Source of the DNA: Azolla caroliniana
Lineage: Eukaryota > Plantae > Polypodiophyta
DNA: 64,000 nt
Direction: 5' to 3'
Assembly: GCA_043228905.1 (NCBI GenBank)
Contig: JBHGNT010000008.1
Coordinates: 5,332,001-5,396,000, forward strand
The translations under genes were made by a program, and so were the position numbers. Shown piece by piece: positions 2,289 to 63,416 of this stretch; positions within the stretch are counted from its first letter, which is position 1; each line of letters opens with the position of its first letter. Below the pieces are notes generated by a model. That model was not told the DNA's origin. It saw nothing but the letters and a program-made list of their open reading frames with translations, and did not search any database.

Positions 2289-2705
2289 CTCCAAAAGGGT
2301 TTGAACCCATGACCTTGTGTTACAAGGGTTGAACCCTTACCATTAAACCATGCATTGTAATAAAAAAATATTATTTTCATTTACTATTTCACTATAGGAA
2401 ATTCATGTATAATCCAGATTAACCTAGAACATTCTAAAAACTTCAGGAGTATTCTTGACAGTACTATAAATAGAGGCACATGGCATTATTAAGAACCAAT
2501 TCGGTTCAACGCTAGTCTTAAGCCTCCTTGTTGTTCTTGTGTCTTTCTTCGTATAATATAATATACTTCCTATTGTCATCACACACACTCTCTCTCTCTT
2601 CCCCGCTGTGATTCTCATCCACTCTTTCCCTTCTTAGTACTAATCCTCATTCTTCTCCTCTATCCTTAGTACTAATTCTCCTTGCCTCTAGTATTATCCC
2701 CGACA
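2266..2705 (+). repeat. 3' LTR of chromovirus copy A
   Basis: Follows the PPT; TATA (CTATAAAT ~2464); GGTTCAACGC-AGTCTTAAGCCTC block and TAGTACTA repeats shared with the LTRs at 10952 and 63350. Confidence 0.88.
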
Positions 2706-5622
2706 ATGGAAAGGAATACTTTTCCGGCCAGTTGAATTGTTATCTACAACAAATAGTGTTAATAATTAGGTAATTAACTAGGGTTAATTAGTGATTAATT
2801 ATGTGATTAGTTAGACAATAGAAGGTTATGTGCTATGTGTGTGAGAGGAAGATACATTTATGAACAATAATATAAATGGGGGATGATTGACGAGAGTGTA
2901 TATTAAAAAGCATCATCAAATACAAAAATACCCACAATGAAGTATATATACTAAGTTGTATGTCCTATATTAAATGAACATGGGAGTGAAGGATCTACAA
3001 TGTATCAAGTACAAAATCCTATTTAAGGCTTTAAGGTCAACACACTAACTAGATTATATCTAGGTAACTACTAAGTTACGTGTGTTGACTAACTAACTAA
3101 ATTTAGTTGAGCTTGATATCTCAATACGCCCCCTCAACCTCAAGTGTGAGGCATCTGACGTCTGCTTTGGCTTTTGTTGGCTACCGTCCAACTTTCGGCT
3201 TTCGGCTTTCTTCGGCATTTCTGAGGCAGTTTCACTTCCTCCCGGTGACGAAGGCTTGTATCGTGAATTGGGCGAAGGCCGACTTCTTCCGCCCATCATG
3301 GGTCACGAGCTGCTTCGGTAGAGCTGCTTAGGATTGTCCTTCGGTAAAGGACTTGGCCGAATATCGTCCTCGGAGTTGACATTCAACTCTTCCTCGGTCG
3401 GATCGGCTCGAGCCGAATCGGGCTCATAACATGATGCCAATTTGTTGAAGACTACGTCTCGACTCACTCGAACCGCTCAGATCGAGGGGTTAAATCACTT
3501 GTATGGTTTTTTCTCGGATGAGTATCCTACGAGGATACATTTCACCGACTTCACGTCGGGCTTCTGTCGGTTTTCGTTCGGGATGCGTACATTCACAATG
3601 CTTTCGAACACCTTGAGGTACGACAGGATCAACTTCCTTCTGACAAGGAGCTCGTATGGAGTTAGCTCATGCACTCCATTAGTGGTGTATTGATTCATGA
3701 GATAGACAGTCGTGGATTGCGCTTCAGCCCAATAGAAGTTCAACATGTGCTTCTCATGCATCATGGCGCATGCTACCTCGAGTATTTGCCGATTCCTCCT
3801 TTCGATGACTCCATTTTGTTGGGGTGTGTGTGGGCATGAGAATTCTCTTCGAATGCCTTCACCTCGAAGGTAGGTCCAGATGAATCTGTCGGGGAAGTAC
3901 TCCATGCCTCCATCCAATAACAGGCATCAAATATGCCGACCTGTTTCTTTTTCGACTTGGCCCTTGAGCTTTTGGAAGTGGGAGAGCACTTCTCTCTTCT
4001 TCTTCATCGGGAAGATCCACGTGTAGCAGTGTCGTGAAGATTTTCGGCGATGGTGTGAAAATTGCGAGGAAAATACAAAATCGAGTGTGGTTCTTCACAC
4101 AAGACATGAAACAATAATAATGAAGATACTAATTTAGATTATCTTAATATCTTGGTACGGGCAGGTGGAGGTCTTCAAGAGCTTCCAAATGTACTTTACT
4201 ACATTTGTAACAGACAACTAAATGTCAAGTTATGTGAATGGGATGTTTGAGAAAAAGAAGAGAAAAACAAAACTATGAGATATCCCACATAGATTGGACA
4301 CATTAGGATCCCACAGTATATAATCAGAGCCAGAACTTATTACTTTCAGTCTATGTGTGGAGCATAGAATGTTCTTGGGCTAAATTGTGGCTTAACGACT
4401 TGTGATAGTTTTGGAGGACCGGACCGAATGGACGGCGACAGAGCCGGAACCGGAATCGGAACCGAAACCAAAACTAGAGAAGATCAGATCACCGGGTCAG
4501 ATGCAGACCGGATAGACAGATCGATCAGATAGGTTGATCGCGACGATTTCGGTGTGAAACAAACAAAAATCATCTAGACTAAAAACACCTAGTAAGAATT
4601 TGTATTCAAAGGGATGTAAGCAAGGCTCGAATCCTACACCTCCAAGATAAGAGGCAATAAACTTACCACTAAGCCAAGTCGTTTCCTTGGTAATATTTTT
4701 TCTACCATTATAGTTTCACATGTAAATTCTCATATTAGAGCTTGATTGAGTGATATGGTTATCATGCATCACGTGTAATGCATGAGCGCCAAATGGCAAA
4801 CATGCATCACATGCATTCCATGCGTTGTATGCATGTCTTGTAGCCTCACATGTATCATATACATGGGGGCATCTATAAAAGAGTGGATGAAAAAGATCAA
4901 AAAGAGGGCTATGTAGGAATCAAGAATTTAATAAGAAGAAAATTCATTATCCAAATGATGATATATCCTGTTCTTCAAATCTAAAGTCAAGGGTTCAATC
5001 TTAATCTCTGTCCATATTTCAATCTCTCTCAATCTAAAGTCAAGCGTTCTATCTTATCTCAATCTCTCTCTCTTTCAATCTATCTTAAATACTTTCTTGC
5101 TAAAGCTACTACAAACTTCGAATCCTTCCAGTCTAGAACCCCGGTGGTCCCGCCTCACAATCTGCATGTAGTGACGAATTTTTCACGACAGCGGGAGTAG
5201 TCGTCGATGAAGGTGACATAGTATCGGCATCCGCCGATCATCGGCGTTTGAGCAGGTCCCCATATATCCGAATGTATGATGTCAAGGAGGCCTTTGCTTA
5301 CGTAACTCTCCTTAGGGAATGGGATTCGATGTTATTTGTGGAGTTGACATGCTTCACACACTCTGTCGGCTCGTTTCGACTCAAAGGTCGGAAATCCGAT
5401 GACGACTCCCTTTGATTGCATTGCTCAAAGCCGTTGGAGGTTTATGTGGCATATTCTCTTACGCCACAACTCGATGTTCATCTCGGTTTTGAGACCTTTG
5501 GCATACCTGGCCAATTTCACCTCATTTGAATCACGAATGAACATTCAGTCGTCTCTCTGTCCCTTAGCTATGAGTCGACCATCTTTCTCAATGAAGCATC
5601 CTTTGTGGTTGAACCGAACTTG
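2706..5622 (-). mobile_element. Ty1/copia remnant A: gag-pre-integrase/integrase, internally deleted, with part of the 3' LTR
   Basis: Minus strand encodes HSDIWGP..YYVTFIDDYSR|YTWIF, PHTPQQNGVIERRNR and KCILVGY; PPT GAGGGGGCG at ~3126-3134 followed by an AT-rich LTR-like segment ~2706-3123; interrupted by the 4030-5190 insertion. Outer boundaries approximate. Confidence 0.8.
4030..5190 (+). mobile_element. Solo LTR (1161 bp) inserted in copia integrase
   Basis: Ends TGTCGTGAA...TTCACGACA; 4-bp TSD GCAG/GCGG whose removal restores DDYSR-YTWIF; TATA CTATAAAA ~4873 followed by a CT-rich tract. Confidence 0.82.
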
Positions 5623-6314
5623 CATGCCAAGGTGTTGGCTTTCTCAACGGTCCAATTTTCTCGCATTTCTACAAGGGCCCCCGATTTGTCATTTCACACC
5701 TGTCCACCCGCCCTCACCATCGATTCTACGATTGTCAGGTCGTCGTACCCGATCTCCCCCGACGAGAATGCGAAAGCTTTCCTGTGCCTTCCGAACATGC
5801 TCCGAAACCGGTCCTCCTCCGCCAGCAGTAGTAAGCCACGCCCACCGATCTTCAGTTCCAATAGCGTCTCGTCAGTGAAGCGGTGCCCTATGCCGGTTGG
5901 ATTCCGTAAACTTGGGTCTGACGCGACCCCCTTCATCCGCTCCTTGCTGCCCTCAGGCAAGGGAGCCGTGACTGGCCTCGCCTTCTGGTCCATAGTCTTG
6001 TACTTGGTGTTGACATCAGTCGTCCTATCGGGCCCGACCATCTCTCTGAAGTCTGCAACGACTTCGTACATTTCCAGGGAACCGACTAGAATCACCCGGT
6101 CTCCGCTTAGGCCTTCTTCGGCTACCCTTCTGATTTCTCCAAGGGTATCGTCGAACGAGACCACCTCCACGACACCGCTAATCTCGTCGTCGGAGCTAAG
6201 AGCACCACATGCCCTTAAACACTCATCGGTCTGTCTCTTTTCCCGGCCGATGATGCCAGTTATAGTACAACCTCCGCCCTCGAAGAACCAATACTTCCTA
6301 CCTATGGTACAGGT

Positions 6315-6380
6315 GTGGGGTTTCTCTGGGGTGTCCGGACTATCGCGACCCCACGCTTTGGTAGCGCTCTCTAAAAATCC
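6315..6380 (-). promoter_or_regulatory. Candidate -1 ribosomal frameshift signal (G GAU UUU UAG plus downstream pairing) of G1
   Basis: GGATTTT at 6380-6374 directly before the protease-frame stop; the -1 frame is open into ORF 5694-6170; GTGGGGT (6354-6348) is complementary to ACCCCAC (6321-6315). Confidence 0.7.
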
Positions 6381-9636: not shown

Positions 9637-11397
9637 AACTCCCCCTTCACTCCGACATGGGATGTCTTACTAGTCCGATCCGCTTCCGGCATGCATCCAG
9701 CTTGTCGGGTATCAGTACTTTGGTTAGCATATTGACCCGTTCACGGCCGTGTGGATCTTCGTCAGCGCAAACTCCTAGTCATCTACTCTTTGCCGGATCC
9801 AGTGATACCTTCGCTGAATATGATTCATCCAGGAATGGTAGGCCACATTCTTAGCAAGGTGGATGGCACTTTGACTGTCGCAATAGAGCCGGTATTCATC
9901 TTGTCGGATACCGAGCTCTCCGATGAAGTCCTTCATCCATAATATTTCCTTGCCGGCTTCCACAGCCGCCATGTATTCTACTTCCGTGGTTGACAATGCA
10001 ACCGTCTTTTGCAGCCTCAACTGCCACGAAAAAGCTCCCCCTGCATATGTCATTACATATCCGGATGTAGACCGGTTGGTATCCACATCAGCCGACATGT
10101 CCGAATCGGTAAAACCGTCAAGTTGAGGTTTTTTGGAGCCGAATTGGAGACACATATTTGAAGTGCCCTTCAAGTACTAGAGTATCCATTTGATCGCGTT
10201 TCAGTGCTCCTTGCTGGATTGCTCATAAACCGGCTCACCACTCCGACTGCGTATCCTATATCCGGTCGGGTACACACCATTGCATACATTAAGCTCCCGA
10301 TGGCAGAGGCATATGGAACCTTCATCATATCCGCCTTCTCTGCTTTCATCTTAGGGCTTTGCTTACCGGATAACCTGCAGTTTGCCGAAAGTGTCAATCC
10401 GACCGGTTTCGCATCTGACATGTTGAACCGTTGAAGCACCTTTGTCACGTACTTCTCCTGTGACAGCAACAATTGCTTCATTGACCGGTTCCGGATAATA
10501 TGCATCCCCAGCATCTGTCTTGCCGGACCCAAGTCTTTCATTGAGAAGGTCCGGTTGAGAACCTTCTTCAGCATCGTATTTTGGCTTGGTCCCCTCCGAC
10601 GATCAACATGTCGTCCACGTACAGAAGGAGTATTAGGAAGTCGCCTCCATCGAACTTCTTCACAAACACACAATGATCAGCCTGTGTCTTGTGGTACCCT
10701 TGATCGGTCATGAAGGAATCAAACTTCCGGTACCATTGTCAGGGAGCCTGCTTCAGTCCATACAGGCTCTTCTTCAACCGGCATACCAGGTGCTCCTTCC
10801 CTTTCTCCACGAATCCTTTCGGTTGTTGCATGTAGATCTCCTCTTCGAGGCCACCGTGAAGGAATGTCGTCTTCACGTCCAGCTGCTCTACCTCGAGGTC
10901 CATGCTTGCCACTATACTCAGCACCGTCCAGATGGAGGTCACCTTTGCTAGTGTCATGATATGGCAAGACTCGAAGCCATGACTTTATGCTACATGGGTC
11001 GAGCTCTTACCATTAGACTATGAATTGTATTTTGTAGGATATTATTTTCATTTATACTTTATCATAGAAAATTGATGTATATTCCAGATCTCTCTGGAAC
11101 ATTCTAGAAGCTTCAGGATTATTCCTAAAAACACTATAAAAGGAGGCACAAGGCATTGTTTTGAACCAAATTGGTTCAACGCCAGTCTTAAGCCTCTTAG
11201 CCGCTTGTACTTATCTTTTCACATAATATATTAGCTCCTGTCATCATCTCTCTCTCTCTCTCATTCTCGCTATCTCTCTCTCTCCTCTTCTCACTTTCTC
11301 TCTCGGGAATCTTACGCAGTCCCGTCCTCTTAGTACTAATAGTACTGTTGTTCTTTAGTACTAATTCCATCTCTGTTTTAGTACTATTCCTGACAGT

Positions 11398-11409
11398 TTG
11401 AACCAATTT
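11398..11409 (+). promoter_or_regulatory. Self-priming PBS (no tRNA complement)
   Basis: TTGAACCAATTT is the exact reverse complement of AAATTGGTTCAA (11168-11179), which lies ~30 nt downstream of the LTR TATA box (11135-11141). Confidence 0.8.
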
Positions 11410-16164: not shown

Positions 16165-18264
16165 GGGGGAGATAGTGTCATGATATGGCAAGTCTCGAAC
16201 CCATGACTTTATGCTACATGGGTCGAGCTCTTACCATTAGACTATGAATTGTATTTTGTAGGATATTATTTTCATTTATACTTTATCATAGAAAATTGAT
16301 GTATATTCCAGATCTCTCTGGAACATTCTAGAAGCTTCAGGATTATTCCTAAAAACACTATAAAAGGAGGCACAAGGCATTGTTTTGAACCAAATTGGTT
16401 CAATGCCAGTCTTAAGCCTCTTAGCCGCTTGTACTTATCTTTTCACATAATATATTAGCTGTTGTCATCATCTCTCTCTCATTCTCGCTATCTCTCTCTC
16501 TCCTCTTCTCACTTCCTCTCTCGGGAATCTTACGCAGTCCCGTCCTCTTAGTACTAATAGTACTGTTGTTCTTTAGTACTAATTCCATCTCTGTTTTAGT
16601 ACTATTCCTGACAGCTACCGGGGTAAATATCTCGTCGAAGTCCATGCCCTTCTTCTGCAACTTGTACACCCACTTGTTTCGGAGTGCCCGCTTTCCTTTC
16701 GGCAACTCCACCAATTCGGATGTATGGTTCTCATGCAGAGAATCCATCTCATCCTGCATGGCACTTAACCATTTTCGGCTGTGGGTGTCATCCTTCGCTT
16801 CTTCGAAGCTTTCTGGCTCCCCCTCATTGGTTAGCAGCACATGCTCTGCATCCGGAAATCTCCGGGGGGGGCTTCTCTCTCTTAGAGAATATCTCCATGT
16901 TTGGCTTTCGGCAATCGGCTCCTCTATTTGATCTTCATCCAAATCCGATTCGGGGTCTTGGCCGGTTCCGGTTCCAGCTTCCTCTACTTCTTTTTCTGCT
17001 GTTTCAGTATCCTCACCGTAACCGGCTGGTTCCTCGAGTGCTCACCGGTCTCTTGCCGGTTGGGTCTGCTCATCGTAGAATCGATCCTTACCGGTCGACT
17101 CAGAGTTCATTATCTTCTTCTCCGACTCCCAGTCGGCGAGCGTCTTGGCCTCCATGAAGATAATATCTCGACTCCGGAATACCTTTCTGTCGACTAGGTC
17201 CCACACTCGGTAGCCGAACTCATCGTCTCCATAACCGGGGAATATGCATGGCCGGGTCTTCGGATCTAGTTTTCCTCTCCGGTCCTTAGCTACATGCACA
17301 TACGCAAGACACCTGAATACCTTCAGATGCCGGTAGGACACTTCCTTACCGGTCCAAACTCTCTGTGGCGTGTCTCCATCCAAGGGTACTGAGGGTGATC
17401 TGTTTATCACATACGTCGCTGTCAACAGTGCCTCAGCCCAAAACGCCTTGGGTAGTTTTGCATGTGCTAGCATACTCCAGACCCTCTCCATTATGGTCCG
17501 GTTCATCCTCTCGGTCAACCTGTTTAGTTCCGGCGTCTTCGGCACGGTAAATTCGAGCCGGATTCCCTTCGAGCGACAGTACTCCTAGAACTGCCCCCGA
17601 TATTCACCTTCGTTATCTACTCGAACCGCCTTCAGCTTCCGGCCGGTTTCTCTTTCCACTCTCGCATGGAGCTCTTTGAAGACGGATAGCACCTGATCCT
17701 TGGTCTTCAACGGTGTGGCCCACAGCTTCCGGCTGTGGTCATCTATGAACGTCACGAAGTACTGCTATCCTGCATGTGACTTCGTGTCCACTTGACGCAC
17801 ATCAGTATGCACCAACTCCAGTGGTGCATTATGTCTCATCGGTGGCCTTGGTCGGAAGGAGGTCCGGTTTTGCTTACTGGCCAGACAATCAGTGCACTTC
17901 TCCAAGTGCACGTTCATCACTGGTATGAGGTTGTCCTTTGCAAGCCTCTTCATCCCCTTCTCGCTCATGTGACACGGCCTTTTGTACCACAACTCACCGG
18001 CTGTGTCGGATGCCACGTTCACTTCCTCCGGACATAACCGGGCATTCATCAGGTACAACGTGTTTACCTTCCAGGCCCGAGCCACAATCAGGCTCCCTTT
18101 GCCGAACTTCATAACACCATTCCGGATGCTACCCCAGTAGCCTTCATCATCTAGCCGACTGACTGATATCAGGTTCAGACGAACCTCCGAAACGTGTCAG
18201 ACATCGTTTAACAGCATCTTGCATCTGGTTCGTGTTGTCAGCCACACATCTCCTATGCCGACAA

Positions 18265-21200
18265 TGTCGAATACATGTGTATAATGGACGTATTCACACT
18301 ATCCCTCTGGGCCATTTGTGTAATTAGCATAAAGGGTAGTTGCCCTAAGTCGGTCACTATATATAGTGACCTTGTAACCTTTTTGTAAGGTTGGGTGTTG
18401 TATTGTTTCTTTGAGAAATAGAAAGTCTTTTGTGTCTCTCTCTCTCTCTCTCTGTGCAACGAATTAGAAACTGTCATACGCAGGTACAAAACAGCAATCG
18501 AATGCTGCTTGATCTTCCGCACAGACGACCTCGTCTACAACATCTGGTATCAGAGCAGAGGTTCGGCCGTCATCACCGCCTGCACAGCATTCGGTTCTTC
18601 ACTTCATCACGGCCTGCACAGTATTCGCGTCATTCGAAGAAAGAGAGAAGAAGAACAAAAACGAGGTTTGCACCTCATCGCGTTAGATCCTCTTGCTTGG
18701 AGTAAGCCATCAGGTTGTACTCTGTTCCTTGTGATCGTAACCGCTCGAGGTGAAATCCCCTTGTGCAACATTGACACGATCGTGCTCCACTCGGTTAAAC
18801 GGCATCCGAAGAAGTCAACAACATCTGCTCGCCGCTCGTTGTAACCACTCGGTGCAGATCGGTCTTAAGACAACAACCCCAAATTCGTGCTTCATCTGGC
18901 TGATCGACATTCGGGAGGATCAGTTGGATCCGTCTCTCTCGTTGCTGCAGTCAACCGAAGCAGAATCGGTCCAGATAATCGGTTTCAATAATCGGTATTC
19001 GGCATAAATATCCGAAGCGAACCGGGCTCACTCCGACTCGGCAACATTCGGGAAGACCAGTCGGTTCTGTCCCTCAAGCTACCGAAGTCAATTCGAGCAA
19101 GTTCGACAAATACATATATCCGAAGCCGAACCGACTCGGGTTCAAATCCGACTAGAACGATATCGGGTGAGCCAACCGGCTGCACTCCTTCAAGGTTCGT
19201 AGTCAACTCCGAACCGAGCTTCGCCAACCGAAACCAAATTTGATGGCATCAACATCCGGCTCGTCAGAAATGAGTCTACGAAAGTTCGATGGATCGAACT
19301 TCAACTTCTGGAAGGAGCAAATGCAGGACTATCTCATAGTCAAGGGGCAAATCGATCCCATCGAAAATGAAGAACCTCCAGAAGGATACAAACCAATTGA
19401 GTGGCAGAAGCTGGACAGAATCGTCCGCGCTACGATTCGGATGCACCTATCGGAATCGGTATATTTTACGGTGCAATCGTGTACGACAGCATTCGAACTG
19501 TGGAAAACATTGTCGGACACTTACGAAAAGAAGGTCGCCGCAACGAAGATGTTTCTGATCCGGCGCCTCTACAACTTGCGGATGAAAGAATCAGATTCGG
19601 TTCAAGCACACCTCAATGAGTACGAAAGCATAAGCTCCCAAATCTCGTCACAGGGGACGGCAATCGAGGATGAACTCAGAGCAATGATACTCATGAGTAG
19701 CCTTCCCTCATCATGGGAAACTTTCGTCACAACCGTGTGCAACGCGTCAACCACGGCTGTTAAGTACTCCGAAGTCACGAGCGCAATCCTGACCGAAGCA
19801 GCTCGGAGAAAGTCTTTCGCCAAAGACTCCACAGACGACGCTTATGTAGTACAAGGTTCGACAGACCGATCGAACATACGAGGAAGAGATTCCTCACGGC
19901 CTCCGAACAATCAGCGAAGACGGAGCCAGTCACGGGATAACCGAATCTGCAACTATTGCAAGAAACCCGGACACATCAAAGCCGACTGCCGCGCACTCAA
20001 GAACAAGAACAACAAGAAGAGTGGCCGGCATGAGGAGATCAATTACGTCAGCTTCTCAGCTGATGTACTACCGGACGACCCGAATATACTATCAATCGAA
20101 AATCCAGTCGGATCAGAAGTTCTACTCACGACTGAAGAATCGAGCACATGGCTCTTAGATTCGGGCGCTTCATTTCACGTGACTCCTCATCGATCCCAAT
20201 TTCGGCAATATACGATCCGTCACTCCGACTCAGTTCGAGTCGGCAACTCACAACACTGTGACATCATCGGAATCAGCACAGTAGAGCTCAACCTTGCAGG
20301 TGGCTCTACACTTGTACTCCACAATGTCCGACATGTACCCGAGCTCACAAGGCCATTGATCTCAGTCGGACAACTAGATGAAGACGGCATTCGTGCCGGT
20401 TTTTCTTCGGGAGGGTGGACACTCCACAGGGGGAACCTCCTGCTTGCTAGAGGACCCAAGATACACTCACTGTATCCGCTACATGTTACGCTCAGAGAGG
20501 GTAACCTGTTTTTGGTGGATATTCCTGTGTCATCACTATGGCACAGAAGATTAGGACACCTCAGCAAGGCCGGCATTACGCATCTATCTAGAGCCGGATA
20601 CATCCCCAAACTCTCCTTCTCCGACCATCAATTCTGCGAGCATTGCCAGTATGGCAAACAAGCAGCCGCATCACACCCGACATCAGCACCAAGAGAAACG
20701 AGACCTCTTGATTTAGTCCATTCGGACGTCTGTGGCCCAATGCCGCATCAGTCTCTAGGCGGTGCCTCTTACTTCGTCAGTTTTATTGACGATTCGACTC
20801 GAAAGGTGTGGGCTTATCCAATTCGAACCAAAGATCGTGTCTTCTCGATCTTCACCGATTGGCTCGCTATGGTAGAAAATCAAACCGACCGAAAGCTGAA
20901 ATGCCTTCGGACAGACAATGGGGGAGAGTTCAAATCCGAAGAATTCGTCAAATTCTGCCGACAACGCGGCATCAGACGTGAATTTACGGCACCACACAGC
21001 CCGGAGCAAAACGGGATTGCCGAACGAATGAATCGGACAATCCAAGAAAGGATAGTTTCCATGCTCCAACACTCCGGACTGTCGGATGGCTTCTGGGCAG
21101 AGGCTCTACTCACGGCAGTACACATAATCAACATGTCGCCAAGTAGACCTCTAGGACTTCAAATTCCTCAGGAACTATGGATCGGCAGCAAGCCGAATTA

Positions 21201-38998: not shown

Positions 38999-40776
38999 AT
39001 GAAGCTACTTATACTCTTTTGTATCAATATAATTCTCTTGCATCATTATATCATTATTTCACCTTCCAAATCCATTCCCATAAATGCTTCAATGCTGATG
39101 TTAAGGAATATTGTGAAATGGCCTAAACTTTCCTCATCAGGTAAATGATCATATTACTATTTAAGACCTATTATAATAAAAAATTAAGGATTCCCTAATT
39201 TAAGGTTAGTTCTTTCAATAAGCCTTTATTTGTCATTGGATTCAATCACTTAATTTGTAAAGATTTCTAATTAGACTTGGTATTTGATAGGTTCCCCCAT
39301 ATATCGACTTAAGTTTTATAATAAGATCCCTAAATTCAGTTAACCTTAGTTTCAATAAACAATGCTTGATTAATAACAAAATATTGTATCTAATTAAAAA
39401 AACCATAAAAGTTTGTGATTTAGTTTTAGTTAGTAAAATGTGTGGATGTTTTTCATGGTTTTTTGGCTAATTGATTAGTTATTAATAATTATGTTGAAGA
39501 GAATAATAAACATTAACATTTGTAATTCATTTTACAAAATTGGACTTAACTTTTTTAACAGATTCACACCATCATCGAGATATGATGCATCATTGGTGGA
39601 ATATGACTCGAGTAAGATACAGTTAAATTAGATTAGTGATAATATTAGATTGATACCCAAGTTTAAAGAATAATTAAGGTGGTTTAAATATAGTCTCACG
39701 CTCACACACTCAGTAATTAATATACCTATATGTGATAGTGCCCCCAAAATCACTATCGAAAATGCAGACTCGATTGTGATTCTAGAGCAAGATATACAAA
39801 GTTGTGATTTAAAACCACAACTCAATTTGTGATTTTAAAATTGCAACTCGATGAGTGATTCTAGATAGTTTTATAATTTGAAACCACAACTTAATTTGTG
39901 ATTTTAGACCTTGGAGATAGAGATTAATTTTAAACCATAGTTCAATTTGTGATTATCGAGAGAGATAAGAGACTTGTAAATTAAAACCACAAGTCAATTT
40001 GTGATTTTAGGAGAGAGGGTCGTGATTTAAAACAATAGCTCGACTTTTGACTTTTACTGGTGTTAGTAAGTAGTATCTCACTAATAATTGACATTAATTC
40101 ACAAATATCATTAATGATCTCAAGATTAATATGCACATCCATAACATTACTAATGCTAGACTTTATGTCATTTGCGGATGTCGATTAATGATTTTGGACG
40201 AATAAACTATATTTATTAACCATCTTATTGGATTGGTGTAGTGACATTCATGCATAATGTGGCTCATGCTCCTAACTTTCTAAGAATTTTTCTTGGGTAT
40301 CCTGCTCATGCTGTCGAGTACCCTTTGATGTGTAAATACTTGGTTTCCATGATATCCAACTCAACATGCAAAACCTTATTTATATGGTACCCTTTTCTAC
40401 ATGTTGTAGTACTTCAGTCATATAGTCCCTTTGGAATTCGTAAAAAAATTCTTGTTTTACAAAAGATGCTAACTAGACCTAACTAGACCAATTTAATATG
40501 GAAATTTTCCAATTGATTATAATTTGAAATCAAAGTAAACTAAATGAAGGATATACTTAAGACTTAATCTAAGAAATGGACGTGTAGAGAAAGATGATTG
40601 GATCGACACCACCCAAGTGTGAAAGGAGATCATGTGGAGGATGTCGACCATGTAGAGCTGTATTGGTACCTATACACAAGTCCCTTGTTAATTTTAACTT
40701 CTCACCCCCTCCAGATTATTATCCTCAAACATGGCATTGTGCTTGTGGTGGACACATATTTAATAATCATAATTAA
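38999..40776 (+). CDS. EPFL: EPIDERMAL PATTERNING FACTOR-like secreted cysteine-rich peptide; exons 38999-39140, 39562-39611, 40588-40776; 126 aa
   Basis: Spliced product MKLLILFCINIILLHHYIIISPSKS...WWNMTRRKMIGSTPPKCERRSCGGCRPCRAVLVP...DYYPQTWHCACGGHIFNNHN has a hydrophobic N-terminus, GSxPPxC and 6 Cys. GT-AG introns have compatible phases (1, 0) and CTTAAY branch-like motifs before both acceptors. Confidence 0.88.
39770..40050. repeat. Degenerate short repeats (AAACCACAACTCAATTTGTGATTTTA) in EPFL intron 2
   Basis: About 6 imperfect copies, probably a TE subterminal relic. Confidence 0.7.
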
Positions 40777-43204: not shown

Positions 43205-44780
43205 CTAGAGCTAGAACACTAATGGTTACACCAATCTGAAAGGGGAAAATCTCTTTGTAAATGATCTATAAAGTTTTACATTTGTGATTTTTTAGTGTTT
43301 TAGCTAATATTTAGTGGGCAAACCTTAAGATATATATAATTTATTATGGGGTACAAACCTTAAAGATACATATAATTTATTATGTGGAGCAAATCTTAAA
43401 GATACATATCATTTAGTGGATGAAATGAAACTATAGTTTTAGCCATAGATTGACATATTCGCATTTGTGGGGCTTCCCCACGAATGTATAGGAATACAAA
43501 TATGAGTCCATAAACAAATATTCGTAAAAAAAAAGGAGAGTTCATAAACTCCCTCCTTTTTAGTCTCCTAGATAAAAAAAGGGAACTTGTCAATAAAATG
43601 GGGACTTAGAGTCTTAATACTAATAATATTTTTATAATAGATGTAAAAAAAGTATTTATTTTATTAAAAAAAAAAGCTTAAGTTTTTTCCCCACTTTTTA
43701 CTCTCCCAAATTTTGTGGATATTTTTTATTTAACATTAAAAGGGGGACTTGAAACTAATTATATTTCTATAATAAATGTAAAAATATTTGTTTTTTAAGA
43801 AATAAATAAAAAAAGAAATCATAAATCAATAAAATAGAATAAAGGTTCATAAAATCCCCCATTTTTTATTTGACACTAAAAAGGACAATTGACACAAATT
43901 ATATTTTATAATCTATTAATGAGTGATTATTCTTTTTTTAGTGAATTAATTAATTAATTTTGGAAAACAAATGGTTTTATAAATTTTTGGGGCCATTTTT
44001 TATTCTCAAATATTGTGAATATCACGCATGTGTCAATCTATACTTTTATTTATATGTATTTAATTTTTTATTGGGAAAAGTACCAGGATACCCCTGGAAG
44101 TTTGTCTATTTACCAGAATGCCCCTAGAAGTTCCAAATTTACCAAACTACCCCTATGTCCAAAAAAATACACATTATAAAGTAATTATACACTTAAATCT
44201 ACAAGCCCTATTTACCAAAATACCCTTAAGCCTAAACTTATTTACCATAATGCCACTATATACCTATTTTGACCAATTTATACCACTTTTATTTTTCAAA
44301 ATACATGATAAATCAAACTAAATTATCGAAATTATATTATATATCAAAAATTTCAATTGAAAGGTCGCCTTAAAATCCAATTCTATAAATTTACACCGAG
44401 TTATAGTGGCTTAATCCCATAAAACCAAAATTTGTGATTGAAGTGACCAAAATGTAATCTTAAAACCAAAACATTTGATCACACACCGAATTTTACCATT
44501 GGGATGCCATTTTGAAGCCAATTTCCATGAATTTGCGGATTCGCAAACAATTTGCGGCCAAAATGTTAAACCAAATCTCACGAAAAACTCTGCTACCAAA
44601 ATGTCATTTAAACGAAATCTCACATAACACTTTGCTATTAAAATGCATCTTAAACCAAATTTCATGATTTTACACTAAATTTTGTTAGCAAAATGCAATC
44701 ACAATTAAATCTCCTCAATTTCATCAAATTCAAAAATACTCGCAAACCAAAAATAATTATCGAATAATGCACAATCGTCA

Positions 44781-47002
44781 CTAACTTGGGGCCCTACAAC
44801 TGCGAGCAATGTGTCCTTTCCCACTACACCTTCCACAACGATGTTCTTTCTTCTTTGTGCCTTCTTCTATTGTGCGTATACATTTGGTTTTTGGACGTCC
44901 AAGAGGTCTTTGTGTGGCTAGTGGTAACATGCCTCCAACAATATTATCATGCATAACAACAACAGGAAATATTGGCTCCTTGTAAGTATCACAATATGAT
45001 TGCAACAAATATGCCTTGTGTGCAAAAGATTGAACTCTTTCTTTTTGAAACAAAATAGCAACCGTTGCATGTGCACAAGGTAACCCCATATCTTGCCTAT
45101 TAGAGACATGTACTAAAGTAAGCATTAGATAAGGATAGATCTAGATAGATAGAAAGAAAGGAGAGAGAGAAAGAAGGGTGCCGATCCACCCGACCACCCC
45201 CGAGCGAAGAGATCGAGACAGACTCCAGCCTTGATCGGCGTCCCATACCACCGCCGTGGCGTCGAGTCGTACCTGGTGCTGGCGCGCTCGCTACAAGAAT
45301 TGATCCACCACAAGACAGAGTCTCGACGTAGTCAACAAGATGATCAATGAGGGTAGCTAGGCCTCTATTTATAGCGATACCCCAGGCCCCCAGCCATGTT
45401 CACACTTGGCCTAATGGGTTGTCTCAATCCCGAGGATTTAAAAGTAATCCTCCCCCTCACACTTATCCACGTGTATAGAATACTACGGTAAATTCTCACC
45501 ACGGGATATTATATAGTCATGCCCGTAACACTGCCATTGTCCACAAGTACATATCTTCTTATCCACATAAACAATCCTAACATGTTTCAAAGTATGGATA
45601 TGAAAAACATCATTAGTAGATGGCAAAATACGGTATAGTTTTCCTTGTTGTATGGATTCTCTAATGAATTTCTCTGCATATCCAACCAATGCATCATGAG
45701 TTATCTCTCCATTAACCAATCCAATATGTGCTTTAGAAGTTTCTCTATTAACCCTCCTTTGATAAAACCATGACATTATCTTTTGGTGCATCAATTCCAT
45801 CATCCCTAGAATAGGCATAACGTTAGCCTCTAATAAGCCTGCATTTAGGGACTCGACAATGTTAGATGTCAAGTGTCCAAACCTTTTCCCTGAAAACTTA
45901 CATGTAGCCCAATGTGAGGGGTCGGTGGTGCTCATTAGCCATTCAACTGCATTACTATTTAAAGTGCGTATTTCTCCAATGATAACATCAAAGTCTTGAG
46001 TATTAGTTGCATTTGCAGCTTTCCACAACATCCCCAATAGTTGAGTGCTTTTAAAAGCTTTTCTGAAATTGTCTGATAGATGGCACATGCAATATCCATG
46101 TGATGTATCATTGCCAAACACCAACATGACACCATCCACTAAACCCTTTTGTCTATCTGAAATAAACGTTATTGGATCTGTGTGTCGAAGAACATCCTTC
46201 AAACTTTGAAGAAACCAACACCAATTATCATCATTCTCTGCTATTACTACACCAAATGCAACCGGAAACAAAGCACCTTGTGCATCAATGGTAGTAGCCG
46301 TGAGAAGGACTCCTAGATATTTTCCTTTCAAATGAGTTCCATCTAGACCAATTGTTGGTCTACAATGCATGAAACTATTTATGCTTGCATTGTAAGCGAT
46401 GAATATGCAAAGAAAGCAACCTTCAATTGTTTCTTGAACATGTGCCACTACCAGGATTAGCTTCTAAAATGTTTTGACAATAATTTCGAAGATTTTGATA
46501 TGCAAATACATGATCCCCATGGATTTGAGCATGTGCATTTTCTTTTGGTTTCCACGCTACCTTGTAAGAGATAGTGACGCCTTTTTCACGACGCACATCA
46601 CCAATTAGTTCCTTTGGTGTGTATGTAAGATGATATTTAAACTTCTCCAATGTTGTTTCAACCAACCATTTTGATCTTACTTCTTTGTTCCCCAAGTGTT
46701 CTTCCCTATTCTTCTTGATTTGGCATGTTGGATGTCCTTCAATACAAGATGCACACAACCTCCATTGACATCTAGAAGTTAATATAGCAAAAGTCATGTG
46801 AGCACAAAATTAAGATTAAAAGTCAAGTGAGTGTAAAAGCATATGAGTACAAAATTCATGTGAACCTTGTTTTATCCGACTTGATCACTCTTAACTCAAC
46901 ATGAGAGCCAATTGCATCATCTCTCACAGCTTGTTGAAGCTCCTTCAAAGAGTCAAACTGCCTTCCCTCCACCAAAGTCATTCTATGAGAGACATCAACC
47001 AT
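44781..47002 (-). pseudogene. MuDR-type transposase (N-terminal domain, MULE DDE, SWIM, CCHC), frameshifted and interrupted
   Basis: GLDGTHLKGKY, FISDRQKGL, YCMCHL, TSNIVESLN, CTCGQWQ|DMGLPCAHA, CGRCSGKGHIARSC. Confidence 0.93.
45098..45530 (-). mobile_element. Solo LTR (433 bp) inserted in the MULE SWIM finger
   Basis: Minus strand TGTTACGGG...CTCTAATA; TSD TTGCC/CTGCC; TATA CTATAAATAGAGG at ~45362-45374; removal restores WQDMGLPCAH. Confidence 0.82.
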
Positions 47003-47145
47003 CGAAATGAGAGATAGACAAATAGAAGAAGAAGAAGAAGAAGAAATCTTTGAAGGATACAAGAAAAAGAGAAATTAGTAGGAAAAGGGGATTGAATAAT
47101 AAAAGAAGAAAGAGCAAACCTAATAATAGAGAAATGACCACATAT

Positions 47146-47187
<42 letters not shown>

Positions 47188-47194
47188 GCCCAGA

Positions 47195-47383
47195 TGGATG
47201 TAGCTAAGTTGGTAAGGTTGCCCAATGGAGACCAGGTGGTCATGGGTTCAACCCTTACATTCCACAGTGGCATCTAGTAAATTAAGAGATATATAAGAAG
47301 TATATAAGAGAGAGGTGAGGAAGTTGGGTTTCGAACCCACAACGTAGTGCTTGTAGTGCTAACAACTTACCACTAGGGTAAGG
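47195..47383. promoter_or_regulatory. Convergent pair of tRNA-like A-box/B-box cassettes in the MULE 5' region
   Basis: Plus: TAGCTAAGTTGGTA (47201-14) and GGGTTCAACCC (47244-54). Minus: TACCCTAGTGGTA (47380-68) and GGGTTCGAAACCC (47338-26). Bracketed by (CA)n and (GA)n tracts. Confidence 0.65.
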
Positions 47384-47733
47384 TAATTATGATAAAAAGA
47401 GAGAGAGAGAGAGAGAGAGACTAACTGATGAAGAGAATTGATGATGAACAAGAAAGAAAAGAAAGACTACCCAAAGAATCACTTAAGTAAATAAGTTTAG
47501 GTTTAAGGGTATTTTGGTAAATATGGCTTGTAGATTTGAGTGTATAATTACTTTATAAAGTGTATTTTTGTGGACATAGGGGTAGTTTGGTAAATTTGGA
47601 ATTTCCAGGGGCATTCTGGTAAATAGACAAACTTCCAGGGGTATCCTGGTACTTTTCCCTTTTTTATTTTAGATAATTGGGTACATATCCCATTACTTTA
47701 ATAAATTGCTCATGGGCCAAATTTGGTATTAGT

Positions 47734-48843: not shown

Positions 48844-49972
48844 TGTTAAAAATTTGATGATATTAACAAATTTTAAACCTTCATTTTTACGTTTTCAAGA
48901 TTGACGGTTTCATTTTCAAATTAACCTTCATATACGGTTAAATTTGCCAAAAACGGTCAAAACGGCCGTCAAAAGGCAACACTAAATTACAATAAGTTTG
49001 TGAGGGAAAACTAATAATATTTACAATAAATGAAACATAAGCTATTGATCATTATTGTTATATGATTCCTCATTGCCTCTTTTCCTACCTCAAGGATCCT
49101 TTGTTGTGAGCAGGAGAGAGAGAAAATAGAAAAAGATGAAGATAGAAGGTAGAGAGAGAGATAGAGAAGGTTGGTAATAGAAAGGAATTTATATTACCAG
49201 AGAACAAGGGTTACAAAGAATATGTTAAGGGGTTGAAGATTGGTGTTAAACCGAATGGGTTTTGATGAATGAGTAGACACCTATTTATTGTTGGGAAAAC
49301 TGGTCCCTCCGGATGAGATGAGTCAAAGAGCCAAATCGGATGCTGGATCAACAGAGAGCTGAATCGGATGAAGGTTGGTAGAGAGTCAAAGGCCGATTCG
49401 GCCGTGTTGGCATAAAAGGCCGACTCCTTCTACTTTGTATCCTTAGTGAACACATTATCTAGTTAGGGCTTTATTTAAGCTCAACCTAACATTGTAAAGA
49501 GGTCTTGGAGTAAAAAGAGTTAGAGAGAAGAGAATAAGAGAGAACTTCCATTGAAGCATAATTTGTGTCTATCTCCTACCTTCCTTCTTCTTTTTGTTAC
49601 CGGCCGGCAAAGGAGTCCAGAGTGGGAAACGGAGAGCTAATTAAGTAGAAGGAATGTGGTTGTAATTAAGCTATGAGTGTGGACGGACGGACCGGAATCG
49701 GTATGCCGTTCCGGATCCGGACCGATCCCGAACAGGTGCGGATGGCACCGTTTTGTAATACAGACCGGAAACCTATTTAAAGGCCCAGATACAATGTAAT
49801 AGTTAGCGGTTAATTAATGAAAGCGTAAGCGTTGTTATATCTCTGTGTAATTGCCGTTCTGTCTTAATTGTTATATCTTACGCGTGTTATGAAGACGATC
49901 CTAATAAGTAACTTGATTAAGTCGGATTAAGCGTTTAAGTCTAATCCGGTTGCCGTAACACCCTTTGGTGAA

Positions 49973-57512: not shown

Positions 57513-57770
57513 ATGGGTCGAGCTCTTAAACATTAGAATATATATTGTAATATGAAGGATATTATTTTCATTTAAGTTTTACTATAGAAAATAGATGTAT
57601 ATTCCAGATTTCTCTGGAACATTCTAAAAACTTCAGGAGTACTCCTGAGAACACTATAAAAGGAGGCACAAGGCATTATTTTGAACCAAATCGGTTCAAC
57701 GCCAGTCTTAAGCCTCCTAGCTACTACTGTATATTCTCTTCACATAATATATATCTTTTGTTATCATCAT

Positions 57771-57808
<38 letters not shown>

Positions 57809-58190
57809 TCACTCACTCACTCACTCACTCATTCCTTCTCTCGAGAGTTCTACACCTCCCTTTGTACTAATCCTCATCTTTTAGTGCTAATTCCTTCTCT
57901 GTCTTAGTATTGTTCTTGACAGTTTGAACTGATTTCTAGTCTCCATCCTTCTCTTCCTTTTATCTTCTTACTTCTCCCTCCCTTCATACTAATCTCTTAT
58001 TCCTCTTTTCTCTCATACTATGGCCACTGTTAGCGCTCAAGAATATCAATCTGTTTTCTCAGAGTTGTAATGCTTGAAAGAGAAGTTTCTCGCATTGGAA
58101 CAAGAAAATCAACGACTGTTGGGGGAGCTTCAACAAATCTCCTTAGAGAAGCAACAGGCGCAACATCAACATGAGGAACTAGTGTTACGA

Positions 58191-58853
58191 TGTCGTGCCT
58201 TTCGGCTCCGGATCATTGCGTGAGTTGGGTGGGAACCACTGAGGTTTTGGACTAGGAGAAAGAAGAATATGAGATAAGGCTCCTTATGAATGGATTGCAA
58301 GAAAGAGAAATATTTGAAGGAAGATATGAAACTCGTGAATCCCATAAGTATAGTTTATTAATTGATACTTAGAATGTAAGAGAGAAATAGATGGAAAAAA
58401 ATCGTGAATCCCACGAATATATTAGATTGATCAAAATCCTTGTAAAATAATCAACAACCCCCATACATCTTTCTCTCCTCCTTATATAAGGATGGAAGAG
58501 GCTAAGCATAACTTCATGCTTTTTCTAGAGTGTTCATGCCCGTTAGATGTGCACGAGTCATTTTTCATTGGTGTACATTTTTTTCTTATAAATAAAGTAT
58601 TCACGCATTCTAAAAAAATGCATGACTTACCTCTTAATAAAGGTCTTATACGTATTAAATCTATATTTAAAACACTTAGGATAAGTTAATACAATGGTAA
58701 GGTTGGGGTTTGTCAACGTGGAGGAATAGGGTTTGAATCCTGCCCTATGCATGTAATAAATATTTTTAATATTTTATTTTATTTATTATACGTACTTTAA
58801 ATCGGATATAGTATTTTACACATTTCACGTAGTGTGTGATTCACACTATGACA
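58191..58853 (-). mobile_element. Solo LTR (663 bp) inserted in chromovirus D gag
   Basis: TGTCGTG...TATGACA; 4-bp TSD ACGA/ACGC restores L-R-V-Q-Q as in copy B; right end GTGTGTGATTCACAC resembles the G2 LTR terminus. Confidence 0.85.
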
Positions 58854-61800: not shown

Positions 61801-63349
61801 GGCGAGCCAACTTTCGATAACCAAAAACAAGTAATCCTGGGACCGGCACGACTGCAAGCAACGCAGGTCTTCAATATGCCATTAGATTCCCATGTTATCG
61901 ATACCATATGGGAGGACTTGAAGATAGATTCTTTCGCCCAAGCCATTCTCGCACAAATTGATCCCTCTTAAGTATCTTGTTCACAGTCGCAACAACCAGG
62001 TACGGACTATCGACAATTCGAATGTCATGATGGATTACTATTGTTTAAGAAACTCTTGTATGTTCTTGTCGCCTTCGAGTAGTCCAAAACTATCATGAAA
62101 CATACACAGCTGGGCATTTTGGTAGTACTAAAACATTAGATTTAGTACAACGATCATTCTGGTGGCCCCATATGCGACGATTTGTCGAAGATTTTGTGAT
62201 ACGTGTTTTGTAGAGAAAAAATGCCAAGGCATCATCCATATGGTTTATTAGAACCATTACCAATTCCAAGAAAGCCGTGGCAAGCCATTGCTCTAGATTT
62301 CATCACAGATCTTCCAGTTTCTACGGGATTCGATGCAATCTTGACAGTAGTAGATCGATATACGAAGATGGCCCATTTCCTGCCATGTACTAAGGAAATC
62401 TCCAGTGAATAAACTGTTGAAACTGTCATGCGTGAGGTATGTCATCATCATGGCCTCCCCGATAGTATCATTAGCGACCATGGACCCTAATTCGTCTCGA
62501 AATTCTAGAAGCACCTCTTCAAAATGCTCAAGGTCACTTGTAACCTCTCCTCCGGCTACCACCCGCAAACAAACGGCCAAGCAGAATGAACAAATCAAAC
62601 GTTGGAGCAGTATCTTTGCTGTTGGGCGGATATTCTCCACTTCCCCGAATTTGCGTATAATAACTCTGTCCACTCATTGACAAAGGTTACACCATTTTCT
62701 GCTTACACGGGTTGTCACCCCGGGTGGTGTGTATTTGAAACCCCAAAATTACCCACAAATCCTTGCATAGAGGATCGTTTGGAGCGGCTATGCAAGATAC
62801 AAGAGGATTTATCTACTCATCTACAACAAGCTCAACAAACACGCAAGGTTTATGCGGATTGTCATCGGCATCCATCCAGTTTTAACATTGGAGATCAGGT
62901 ATGGCTACTATGACGACACATCAAGATTACTCGCCCATGCGAGGAGTTGGATTATCGGCGACTAGGTCCTTTCCGTATTTCCGTATTGGCTTTTTGTCTC
63001 GATCTACCTTTGCAACTATGGATACATCTGGTGTTTCATAGTTCTCTCCGAGAACCCTATCTGGATAGCACCATCCTAGGTCGTATTAAACCACCTCCAC
63101 CCCTGATCGAACTTGAAGATGGACTTGAGTACGAGGTTGTTGCCATCCTCGATTCCAAGATTGTTCGCAACAAGCTCTATTATTTAGTCGATTTGCTAGG
63201 ATATAGTCCTAGCAAGTGTCCTTGGGAACCAATAGAGAATGTGACCAATGCTCGTGCACTTCTTGAAGACTTCCATCATCAATATCCAGATAAACCGGGT
63301 CCTCAATCCAAAATGACTCGTAACACTCGTTGTTTTAAAGGGGGGATAC

Positions 63350-63416
63350 TGTCATGGCAAGATTCGAACCAATTCCCTTATGTTACATTGGTCGAGGTCT
63401 TAACCATTAGACTATA
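63350..63416 (-). promoter_or_regulatory. tRNA-like A-box/B-box cassette at the U3 end of the chromovirus LTR (best-preserved copy)
   Basis: Minus strand TAGTCTAATGGTTAAGAC (D-arm-like GTCT/AGAC stem) ... TGGTTCGAATC; equivalents at 2297-2350, 10968-11020 and 16192-16244. Confidence 0.72.

Follow-up and report, generated by a model that had tools for sequence, protein, structure and literature searches.

In a window of 64,000 nucleotides from Azolla caroliniana, eight pairs of A and B boxes stand in tRNA order and spacing (8/8), and they are hosted by two Gypsy lineages (Tcn1-like chromoviruses and Phygy-like solo LTRs) and one MULE (Table 1). Our leading reading, held from the sequence with slightly less than even confidence, is that these cassettes are tRNA-derived type-2 Pol III promoters cut down to their contact letters, which likely recruit TFIIIC/TFIIIB and would keep the chromatin on the promoter side open or shielded. 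Two chromovirus clades and a single Phygy-like family show the position, the antisense orientation and the tRNA register of the cassette, with conservation confined to the A box, tRNA positions 44-47, the B box and, upstream, an AT-rich tract.

Table 1. Cassettes and their host elements in the window (class names with "-like" are putative assignments)
Feature	Position	Strand	Remarks
Chromovirus A 3' LTR	2266..2705	+	Tcn1-like; chromodomain ORF 1821-2288 and PPT just upstream
Cassette, chromovirus A 3' LTR	2297..2350	-	A box, AGGT at 44-47, B box, then T4 at once
Solo LTR 1, Phygy-like	4030..5190	+	4-bp NCGN-type TSD GCAG/GCGG, one mismatch; TATA near 4874
Cassette, solo LTR 1	4624..4676	-	~200 nt upstream of TATA; T5 46 nt past T54
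Chromovirus B 5' LTR	10952..11395	+	5-bp TSD GCTAG/GCTAC; LTR pair 97% identical
Cassette, chromovirus B 5' LTR	10968..11020	-	B box end 15 nt from LTR end; T8 115 nt upstream of TATA
Predicted R-region self-primer, chromovirus B	11168..11180	+	12/13 complementary to 11397-11409 behind 5' LTR
Chromovirus B 3' LTR	16176..16613	+	
Cassette, chromovirus B 3' LTR	16192..16244	-	long hairpin, in B subfamily only (z -5.3)
MULE	44073..47659	-	173-bp TIRs (96%), 9-bp TSD, MULE transposase domain 45486-46463
MULE cassette 1	47201..47254	+	unit the size of a tRNA; 76-81% identity with the LTR cassettes of L036 and L081, relatives of the chromoviruses
MULE cassette 2	47328..47380	-	convergent with cassette 1
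Chromovirus C 5' LTR	about 57513..57921	+	left end replaced, B box lost; counter-example
Solo LTR 2, Phygy-like	58191..58853	-	4-bp TSD ACGA/ACGC, one mismatch; TATA near 58485
Cassette, solo LTR 2	58687..58740	+	feature of whole family in four DNA runs
Chromovirus C 3' LTR	63350..63763	+	
Cassette, chromovirus C 3' LTR	63361..63414	-	one extra D-loop base

We searched the window for the A-box core TGGT(T)A paired with the B-box core GNTTYRA at lengths of 15-60 nt and compared the counts with 40 local dinucleotide shuffles. The eight pairs located by the earlier note were recovered at a single spacing, against 0.2 expected per length in the shuffles (maximum 3), and any other length gave at most one pair. 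The distance of 29 nt, which that note had equated with the tRNA register, is indeed the commonest value in real tRNAs (33 of 59 measured; 28 nt in 10). Its claimed invariance holds for the window but not for relatives, in which 29 nt was found in seven and 28 nt in six of 13 scorable cases. All LTR cassettes are antisense and point outward, and the proposed location upstream of the TATA box and opposite to it applies to the six LTR copies. Of the three LTR families that had been claimed, recurrence in unrelated lineages stands, but the LTR cases come from two lineages only: four of the eight pairs are copies of one chromovirus lineage and both solo LTRs are Phygy-like, the other two pairs being in the MULE. 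No cassette was detected in five Copia LTRs of the window or in the Phygy-like LTR at 26845-28182. A fifth chromovirus LTR, at about 57513-57921, in which B box and left end are gone, had been absent from the earlier list.

The chromoviruses of the window are probably Tcn1-like, as judged by the chromodomain and by predicted self-priming, and their nearest named matches are mostly fungal. Chromovirus B spans 5.7 kb and codes for gag, PR, RT, RH and IN; the complementarity for self-priming, predicted to act in place of a tRNA PBS, amounts to 12/13 in B and 11/12 in C. The group-I chromodomain cage reads Y/W/Y in element A, and its W is replaced in element C. Both solo LTRs, which contain no coding part, appear Phygy-like by their NCGN target sites, a 4-bp motif of Phygy elements (PMC6317226), by similar ends, and by a 73% match over 155 bp between the left part of solo LTR 1 and a DUF4100 Gypsy LTR at 28028-28178. 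Solo LTR 2 sits within the gag of chromovirus C, and its family, followed in four DNA runs, has differing spacers and an exactly equal register. AGGT was present in 99% of placed read depth, and the critical C56 in only 41-50% of a read depth that is reference-biased and includes dead copies. For the MULE pair we found one relative (L013:281-538, 79%), which has lost the A box; its two cassettes converge, a layout unlike that in the LTRs, and the evidence for selection on the pair is weak.

To follow the cassette beyond the window, chromovirus relatives were retrieved by integrase-tail/chromodomain protein only, from two contig sets (ERZ, 32 loci; Ga, 36 loci), and their LTRs were examined for an antisense B box of at least 8 bits lying 15-60 nt from the LTR left end. 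Such a box was found at 21/32 ERZ loci versus 1/36 Ga loci. Two features that had played no part in the selection accompanied it: AGGT at tRNA positions 44-47 was exact in 20 of the 21 relatives, and the A-box GG occurred at 33-35 nt in 17 of 21, against 2.0 expected. Across 15 dereplicated families with a mean protein identity of 66%, the spacer had an identity of 0.33, compared with 0.37 at 4-fold (synonymous) sites and 0.30 for random sequence, and positions 44-47 reached 0.87-1.0, next to 0.30-0.52 at positions 48-51; the 0.76 of the B box is inflated, as this box had served as the anchor. When diverged families are compared, the boxes are far more strongly conserved than the spacer, the flanks or synonymous sites, as the earlier note had anticipated. 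Of the sequence outcomes which that note had named as refuting, none occurred apart from a one-base variation of the spacer. Box spacing stayed at 33-35 nt, the distance from the B-box end to the LTR end ranged over 15-39 nt and that from T8 to TATA over 115-208 nt, and the stretch from -45 to -16 was more AT-rich than that from -95 to -51 in 13/13 cases (0.84 vs 0.67). Place and orientation of the cassette are identical in two chromovirus clades. In an abundant sister clade of the cassette-bearing chromoviruses it is entirely absent, and 11/32 ERZ loci fall under the B-box threshold, including four high-coverage contigs (L022, L026, L038 and L044, the last of which has lost the A box as well), which indicates that some abundant families can do without the cassette. 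The notion of a shared system survives as recurrence in unrelated lineages; it was overstated for the MULE, and it reaches neither the Copia LTRs of the window nor the chromoviruses of the second (Ga) set.

What is known of TFIIIC gives this pattern a possible meaning. Position 47 is contacted by a winged-helix domain of TFIIIC, and altered bases at 44-47 affect binding or transcription; the stretch that separates the boxes can be dispensed with, and TFIIIB loading requires the A box (PMC11724288). An AT-rich region within about 50 nt upstream is the plant norm for TFIIIB (PMC11700998). A spacer of near-random identity and the lack of any conserved cloverleaf, hairpin or terminator, combined with retained GG, AGGT and AT tract, bear the mark of a selected TFIIIC/TFIIIB site and not that of an RNA product or a plain SINE. 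Purifying selection for TFIIIC binding is highly probable on these grounds, and so is selection for TFIIIB placement, because A box and upstream tract are both kept. The fixed spacing may partly be inheritance, since TFIIIC tolerates box-to-box distances of 31-93 bp (PMC11724288).

The reduced cassette, back to back with the LTR's Pol II promoter, would recruit host TFIIIC and TFIIIB; the bound factors would keep the chromatin on the promoter side open and protect it against heterochromatin next to the element, with Pol III transcripts, if any, as a by-product. Given binding, we consider the chances evenly balanced that the benefit is a barrier or nucleosome-free platform about 115-210 nt upstream of the TATA box. 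Yeast TFIIIC sites and tRNA genes act as barriers, and do so better with TFIIIB (PMC3395662). Group-I chromodomains bind H3K9me (PMC3350952), and such a platform would be useful to elements that this domain is expected to bring into H3K9-methylated chromatin. The Phygy-like elements have no chromodomain, so this argument covers the chromoviruses only. To our knowledge, Pol III promoters have been described as barriers in yeasts and mammals only, and our literature search for plant cases returned nothing relevant. As for origin, a tRNA gene or tRNA-SINE head may have been captured, in the chromoviruses once with a subsequent loss or twice, with a separate capture in the Phygy-like lineage, and the MULE may have taken a related unit.

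The selected trait could instead be Pol III transcription itself, giving either an outward antisense RNA for small-RNA copy control, which from a 3' LTR would run over the PPT and the integrase tail, or short hairpins. We consider this rather unlikely, although the promoter is complete, with A box and AT-rich upstream tract, and foamy-virus U3 cassettes set a precedent (PMC3993851). The B subfamily of the window has a strong hairpin (z of -4.6 and -5.3), T4 comes right behind the cassette of element A, and the T5 runs that the earlier note reported behind both solo-LTR cassettes do lie 46 and 31 nt past T54. Terminators overall are nevertheless inconsistent, the first T4 lying 9 to 861 nt past the window cassettes and falling within the LTR in only 5/18. 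A hairpin z under -2 was reached by only 4/18 sequences, three of them from one subfamily, the best family-wide helices were at shuffle level, and the transcript sequence is unconserved. A functional tRNA gene, for which the earlier note had suggested tRNA models as a check, is also lacking: ARAGORN reported 0 in the window, no tRNA match to Rfam RF00005 was obtained there, and the best relative reached 16 bits, the cut-off being 29. Pairing in the acceptor, anticodon and T stems of the family stood at row-shuffle level, versus 0.77-0.95 in 33 real tRNAs. Without a conserved fold or terminator, the product branch of the proposed antisense-RNA source is weakened, and the complete promoter stands; the weakening goes no further, because read-through antisense RNA needs no conserved fold.

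The cassettes might also be neutral relics, tRNA-SINE heads or tRNA pseudogenes that landed in ancestral LTRs and are now passengers, which is improbable overall. Pointing this way, the L081 unit can still be aligned to the Rfam tRNA model from one end to the other (16 bits, E 0.45), the MULE unit matches that of L081 over about a tRNA length, degenerate copies exist, and a 9-bp direct repeat flanks the cassette of solo LTR 2 (chance 0.09). Yet 44-47 and GG are kept while spacer and synonymous sites are near saturation, place and orientation agree between two clades, and the flanks are consistent in family contigs and reads (58765-58853 left out). No SINE body or tail was found, the chromovirus LTR ending 15-39 nt past the B box, and a search for own TSDs around the four non-chromovirus cassettes gave none at 2/4 and a microsatellite match at one. 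A single ordinary SINE, complete with tail and TSD, does not account for the cassettes, though a tRNA-related A/B-box head is present. An AT-rich stretch behind the cassette was seen in solo LTR 2 only. Neutral descent is already largely refuted for the chromoviruses, and fits the MULE pair best. Pairing with tRNA has been described as aiding strand transfer or packaging for HIV-1 U3 and Ty3, and the plus-strand copy could likewise work in reverse transcription, the U3 of the genomic RNA pairing with the conserved loops of a host tRNA. The fixed antisense orientation does make the genomic RNA complementary to tRNA, and in chromoviruses the cassette lies directly behind the PPT; a role of this kind is equally improbable, as the conserved letters are neither continuous nor specific to an isotype, the AT-rich upstream tract and the 600-nt end distance in solo LTR 1 suit a promoter better, no such role is possible in the MULE, and chromoviruses are predicted to self-prime (PMC6317226). 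Slightly less remote, but still unlikely, is a service of the bound Pol III factors to integration, either by offering elements that target Pol III a landing pad or decoy or by tethering the cDNA end of the element itself. Ty3-type Pol III targeting is established, and 15-39 nt separate the chromovirus B box from the U3 end. Among the joints and ends listed, however, none upstream of the cassette was recurrent or foreign, and none of three mapped nested insertions (element B, solo LTR 1, solo LTR 2) lies upstream of a cassette, a weak test.

Docking of TFIIIC/TFIIIB, the reading we prefer, has partial parallels. Helenus/TRIMp3 elements share a tRNA-like LTR sequence with conservation centred on the A box and the B box, mostly without a functional tRNA; a SINE insertion into the LTR has been proposed as their origin, one family occurs in Selaginella, a non-seed plant, and "not a few" Repbase LTRs contain part of a tRNA (Kojima 2024, PMC10886601). 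They differ in being short non-autonomous TRIMs (311-1263 bp), and their Pol III promoter has been proposed as the source of their own template RNA, with autonomous partners expected to use Pol II (PMC10886601), whereas here the cassette is hosted by autonomous Gypsy elements that have a TATA box, and is directed away from the element. Cassandra TRIMs, likewise LTR elements of plants, also have a conserved Pol III promoter within the LTR, but the promoter is of the 5S type (type 1) and transcribes the element itself, which is non-autonomous (PMC10886601). The miRNA cassettes of foamy viruses are A/B-box Pol III units in the U3 of an autonomous LTR element with a Pol II promoter; they encode defined hairpin RNAs ending at T-runs (PMC3993851), whereas here only factor-contact letters are conserved, and fold and terminator are not. 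The proposed working principle, TFIIIC sites acting on neighbouring chromatin, is that of yeast tRNA-gene and ETC barriers (PMC3395662), and mouse B2 SINE boundaries (PMC8136502) and enhancer SINEs (PMC5732322) act on chromatin or Pol II promoters. Such elements belong to host genomes or are independent SINEs, in fungi and mammals, outside any retrotransposon's own promoter, and ETC sites work without TFIIIB, unlike the LTR cassettes, which retain the A box. Tcn1 chromoviruses resemble those of the window in group-I chromodomain, predicted self-priming and fungal nearest named relatives, and Phygy elements resemble the solo LTRs in their 4-bp NCGN target sites (PMC6317226, PMC2864245); in the portions of these two papers that we searched, Pol III boxes of the LTRs go unmentioned.

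Pol III promoters in LTRs are therefore known from Cassandra, Helenus and foamy viruses, and an antisense, product-less form in autonomous plant elements was not found in our literature search. It is a doubtful generalization from sequence comparison that unrelated transposon classes of this plant lineage have repeatedly captured and retained a product-less tRNA promoter as a self-carried TFIIIC/TFIIIB anti-silencing module beside their Pol II promoter. The conservation offers independent evolutionary confirmation that tRNA positions 44-47 belong to the TFIIIC site. How retrotransposons inserted in heterochromatin are transcribed is still an open question, and it is chiefly from yeasts and mammals that TFIIIC barriers are established. 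These are high-copy plant elements in which the cassette is polymorphic between families, so that bound and box-less LTRs are comparable within one genome, and the cassettes would strew thousands of potential TFIIIC sites over the host genome. If the anti-silencing module is real, the elements would stay transcribable in heterochromatin and would provide a first handle on plant TFIIIC barriers, with thousands of natural test sites.

All six LTR cassettes of the earlier note, tRNA-type A-box/B-box pairs lying antisense in the LTRs, are present where the note placed them, and both cassettes that it had assigned to the MULE, a transposon in the same window, were located. When we counted A/B pairs on both strands by their spacing, eight pairs fell at one length and at most one at any other length from 15 to 60 nt, against 0.2 pairs per length, with a maximum of 3, in 40 local dinucleotide shuffles. 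The spacer, counted from the A ending TGGT(T)A to the base three before TT(C/T)RA, had been described as 29 nt, a tRNA distance, and as invariant. The former agrees with 63 real tRNAs from viral contigs, in which the spacer is 29 nt in 33 and 28 nt in 10 of the 59 measurable cases. The latter holds for all eight pairs in the window, which share one length, and not for their relatives, where 7 of 13 scorable spacers have 29 nt and 6 have 28 nt. With a profile trained on relatives from outside the window, 17 regions were scored: the six cassette LTRs and the MULE reached 24-37 bits, five Copia LTRs no more than 4 bits, and one Phygy-like LTR 9 bits. Scanning the window with this profile returned the eight cassettes and one weak match, compared with 0-2 matches in 20 shuffles. 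The cassette occurs in four of the five LTRs of chromoviruses A, B and C, the exception being the C 5' LTR, where the B box and the left end are gone. Searching the window for tRNA genes with ARAGORN and Rfam identified no tRNA and recognised no cassette as one; relaxed ARAGORN matches were noise. Two strong B-box-like sites without an A box, in a truncated Phygy-like LTR and in solo LTR 1, score 17.8 and 13.9 bits, respectively.

The window is made up of nested retrotransposons and one MULE. Chromoviruses A-C possess a group-I chromodomain, have mostly fungal elements as closest named relatives, and, where a tRNA primer-binding site would be expected, carry a sequence able to pair with the R region of the element itself (12/13 in B). 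Neumann et al. (PMC6317226) describe such traits for the Tcn1 clade, and by them chromoviruses A-C are likely Tcn1-like. The target sites of the two solo LTRs are 4 bp long and of the NCGN type, which that source gives as the Phygy preference (PMC6317226). The LTR that solo LTR 1 resembles belongs to a DUF4100 Gypsy element with named relatives from liverworts and a fern, and the host is therefore likely a non-seed plant.

Positions of cassette-bearing elements and other features in the window
Feature	Position (strand)	Remark
Chromovirus A, 3' LTR	2266-2705	
Chromovirus B, 5' and 3' LTRs	10952-11395, 16176-16613	
Chromovirus C, 5' and 3' LTRs	57513-57921, 63350-63763	
Solo LTR 1	4030-5190 (+)	Phygy-like
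Solo LTR 2	58191-58853 (-)	Phygy-like
MULE	44073-47659 (-)	
MULE cassettes	47201-47254 (+), 47380-47328 (-)	
Predicted Tf1-type self-priming structure	11168-11180 and 11397-11409	chromovirus B; short palindrome in R around the primer
B-box-like site, no A box	26637-26578 (-)	truncated Phygy-like 5' LTR 25581-26844; sense, 3' of TATA box; ETC-like
B-box-like site, no A box	4985-5000 (+)	solo LTR 1; sense, 3' of TATA box; ETC-like
Copia LTR pair	18265-18542, 23334-23611	278 bp, 100% identical, indicating a very recent insertion
LTR-like stretch	45060-45480	splits the MULE 3' of its transposase ORF; part 74% to L017:2-111
Tcn1-like LTR fragment	49120-49292	cut at its own TATA box by a Copia-type LTR
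Exon of cysteine-rich peptide gene	40588-40776 (+)	only host gene seen in the window; presumably EPF/EPFL-like, from its motif

Relatives of the chromoviruses were picked regardless of the cassette with an alignment of the integrase tail and chromodomain, and the best 79 of 558 loci were retained, 36 from ERZ and 43 from Ga contigs, two sets told apart by name. Eleven loci (4 ERZ, 7 Ga) were excluded because no LTR start or length was available. An antisense B box of at least 8 bits by a matrix from real tRNAs, 15-60 nt from the left end of the LTR, was found in 21 of 32 ERZ LTRs versus 1 of 36 Ga LTRs, the Ga set being redundant with 22 near-copies from a single family. Two features unused in this selection accompany the B box: AGGT at tRNA positions 44-47 is exact in 20 of the 21 positive LTRs, and GG stands 33-35 nt before T54 in 17 of them (2.0 expected). 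Beyond the 13 relatives scorable for the spacer, four keep the GG while lacking A at position 21, and in four the GG is absent. Most of the 11 ERZ LTRs under the threshold contain a degraded cassette that is still in register; a few are empty or rearranged. In Ga-set chromoviruses without the cassette (L042-L082), U3 opens with short tandem repeats; although the LTRs of Ga chromoviruses are without it, A/B pairs with AGGT do occur in Ga non-chromovirus repeats (L055:13866 and L082:3424, both minus strand). Two related chromoviruses carry a further antisense A/B pair (33 nt) at homologous places in their internal region (L012:2961 and L017:1018, both minus strand), with differing spacers. In the viral contigs, the protein search gave no chromovirus relatives, and the cassette pattern matched nine real tRNA genes, which we kept as controls.

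For estimating selection, we compared 15 families with spacers less than 70% alike, across which mean protein identity is 0.66 and identity at 4-fold sites is 0.37 (random 0.30). Pairwise identity is 0.33 at tRNA positions 27-43, 0.87-1.0 at 44-47 and 0.30-0.52 at 48-51; T8, A14, the base before GG, G18 and G19 reach 0.73-0.87, and the cassette flanks 0.39 and 0.37. The comparison of boxes with their surroundings suggested in the earlier note thus came out in favour of the cassette, the boxes being kept far above spacer and flanks. The distances around it vary, from 15 to 39 nt between the B box and the LTR end and from 115 to 208 nt between T8 and the TATA box. The AT content of positions -45 to -16 exceeds that of deeper U3 in 13/13 families, two of the 15 being too short, and the 50 nt upstream of plant tRNA genes are described as AT-rich (PMC11700998). 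According to PMC11724288, a winged-helix domain of TFIIIC contacts position 47, changes at 44-47 alter binding or transcription, the segment between the boxes is dispensable, and TFIIIB loading requires the A box. The conserved letters of the cassette match those read by TFIIIC. Judged from these alignments, the LTR cassette, as distinct from the MULE pair, is real and very probably under selection.

Variation within families was sampled in four DNA runs, each with its own organism label. The B LTR matched 1806-2955 contigs per run, and among 40 of the 60 variant rows, 6 map within the 53-nt cassette, as against 16 in the adjoining 48 nt; the loose ends of the contigs show an extra D-loop base as the common length change. 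Solo LTR 2 matched 273-833 contigs per run, and its subfamilies have unrelated spacers with A and B boxes in identical register. In this family, 99% of the depth carries AGGT and only 41-50% carries C56. Because 58765-58853 lies outside the coverage, an empty-site allele could be missed.

A quick tree of 44 of the 79 loci (661 columns, midpoint root), which superseded a weak 134-column tree, contains two cassette-bearing clades. The smaller one (L044, L081, L083 and L084) is sister, with an SH-aLRT of 100, to a 17-row clade without the cassette, suggesting that the cassette was either gained twice or gained once and lost once. Since all carriers belong to one contig set, the trait is possibly restricted to one host lineage. 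Over approximately a tRNA length, MULE cassette 1 is 76-81% identical to LTR units of L036 and L081, and the L081 unit aligns end to end with the Rfam tRNA model at 16 bits, pointing to a tRNA-sized unit that moved between element classes or to a shared donor. For the convergent MULE pair a single relative was found, L013 (79%), in which the first A box is missing. A neutral relic would suit the MULE best; as an account of the cassette at large, set beside the conserved boxes, we regard it as very improbable.

The cassette does not retain RNA-level features. Stem pairing compared with row-shuffles is 0.28/0.24 for the acceptor, 0.33/0.30 for the anticodon and 0.37/0.37 for the T stem, none better than shuffled rows, and 0.46/0.39 for the D stem (p 0.065). 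In 33 real tRNAs the pairing reaches 0.64-0.95. T4 lies inside the LTR in only 5 of 18 sequences, and Rfam reported only sub-threshold miRNA-type matches on 15 relative loci. A long hairpin of the window's B subfamily reaches z below -2 in 4/18 sequences, and as a conserved, covarying structure it failed across families. The cassette would work like a type-2 promoter, and antisense transcription could be its selected output, which we consider unlikely next to these RNA-level results. Antisense RNA as the minus-strand primer was rejected by reasoning, as R would be bypassed and the LTR could not be rebuilt. A cassette that pairs with a tRNA during reverse transcription, for which a tRNA-like sequence in HIV-1 U3 is reportedly a precedent, has in our estimate a very small probability.

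On the tested features, the cassette is neither a SINE nor a tRNA gene. The proposed role of the Pol III promoters in the LTRs of Cassandra and Helenus is transcription of a short non-autonomous element (PMC10886601); unlike that of Helenus, the cassette is antisense in autonomous LTR elements, and on the tested features it does not belong to that group. It likewise differs on the tested features from the Pol III miRNA cassettes reported in foamy-virus U3 (PMC3993851). Pol III promoters in LTRs are thus already known, and the listings and abstract openings obtained by searching open-licence full text contain no description of an antisense A/B-box cassette in autonomous plant LTR elements, although supplements of PMC10886601 or Repbase may list such LTRs. 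This claim is limited by the remark of Kojima that not a few Repbase LTRs contain tRNA parts (PMC10886601).

We propose that the cassette would be a docking site for TFIIIC and TFIIIB, back to back with the Pol II promoter of the LTR, and binding of these factors is probable from the letters conserved. An integration landing pad or tether is a distinctly less probable use of such a site. In yeast, tRNA genes and ETC sites act as barriers, which are stronger with TFIIIB (PMC3395662), mobile boundaries (PMC8136502) and enhancer SINEs (PMC5732322) are reported in mouse, and H3K9-methylated chromatin is given as the target of the group-I chromodomain (PMC3350952). Counting against a barrier or platform, abundant families lack the cassette and the Phygy-like carriers have no chromodomain. 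As our preferred, tentative reading, the docked factors may nevertheless act as a barrier or an open-chromatin platform beside the Pol II promoter of these elements.
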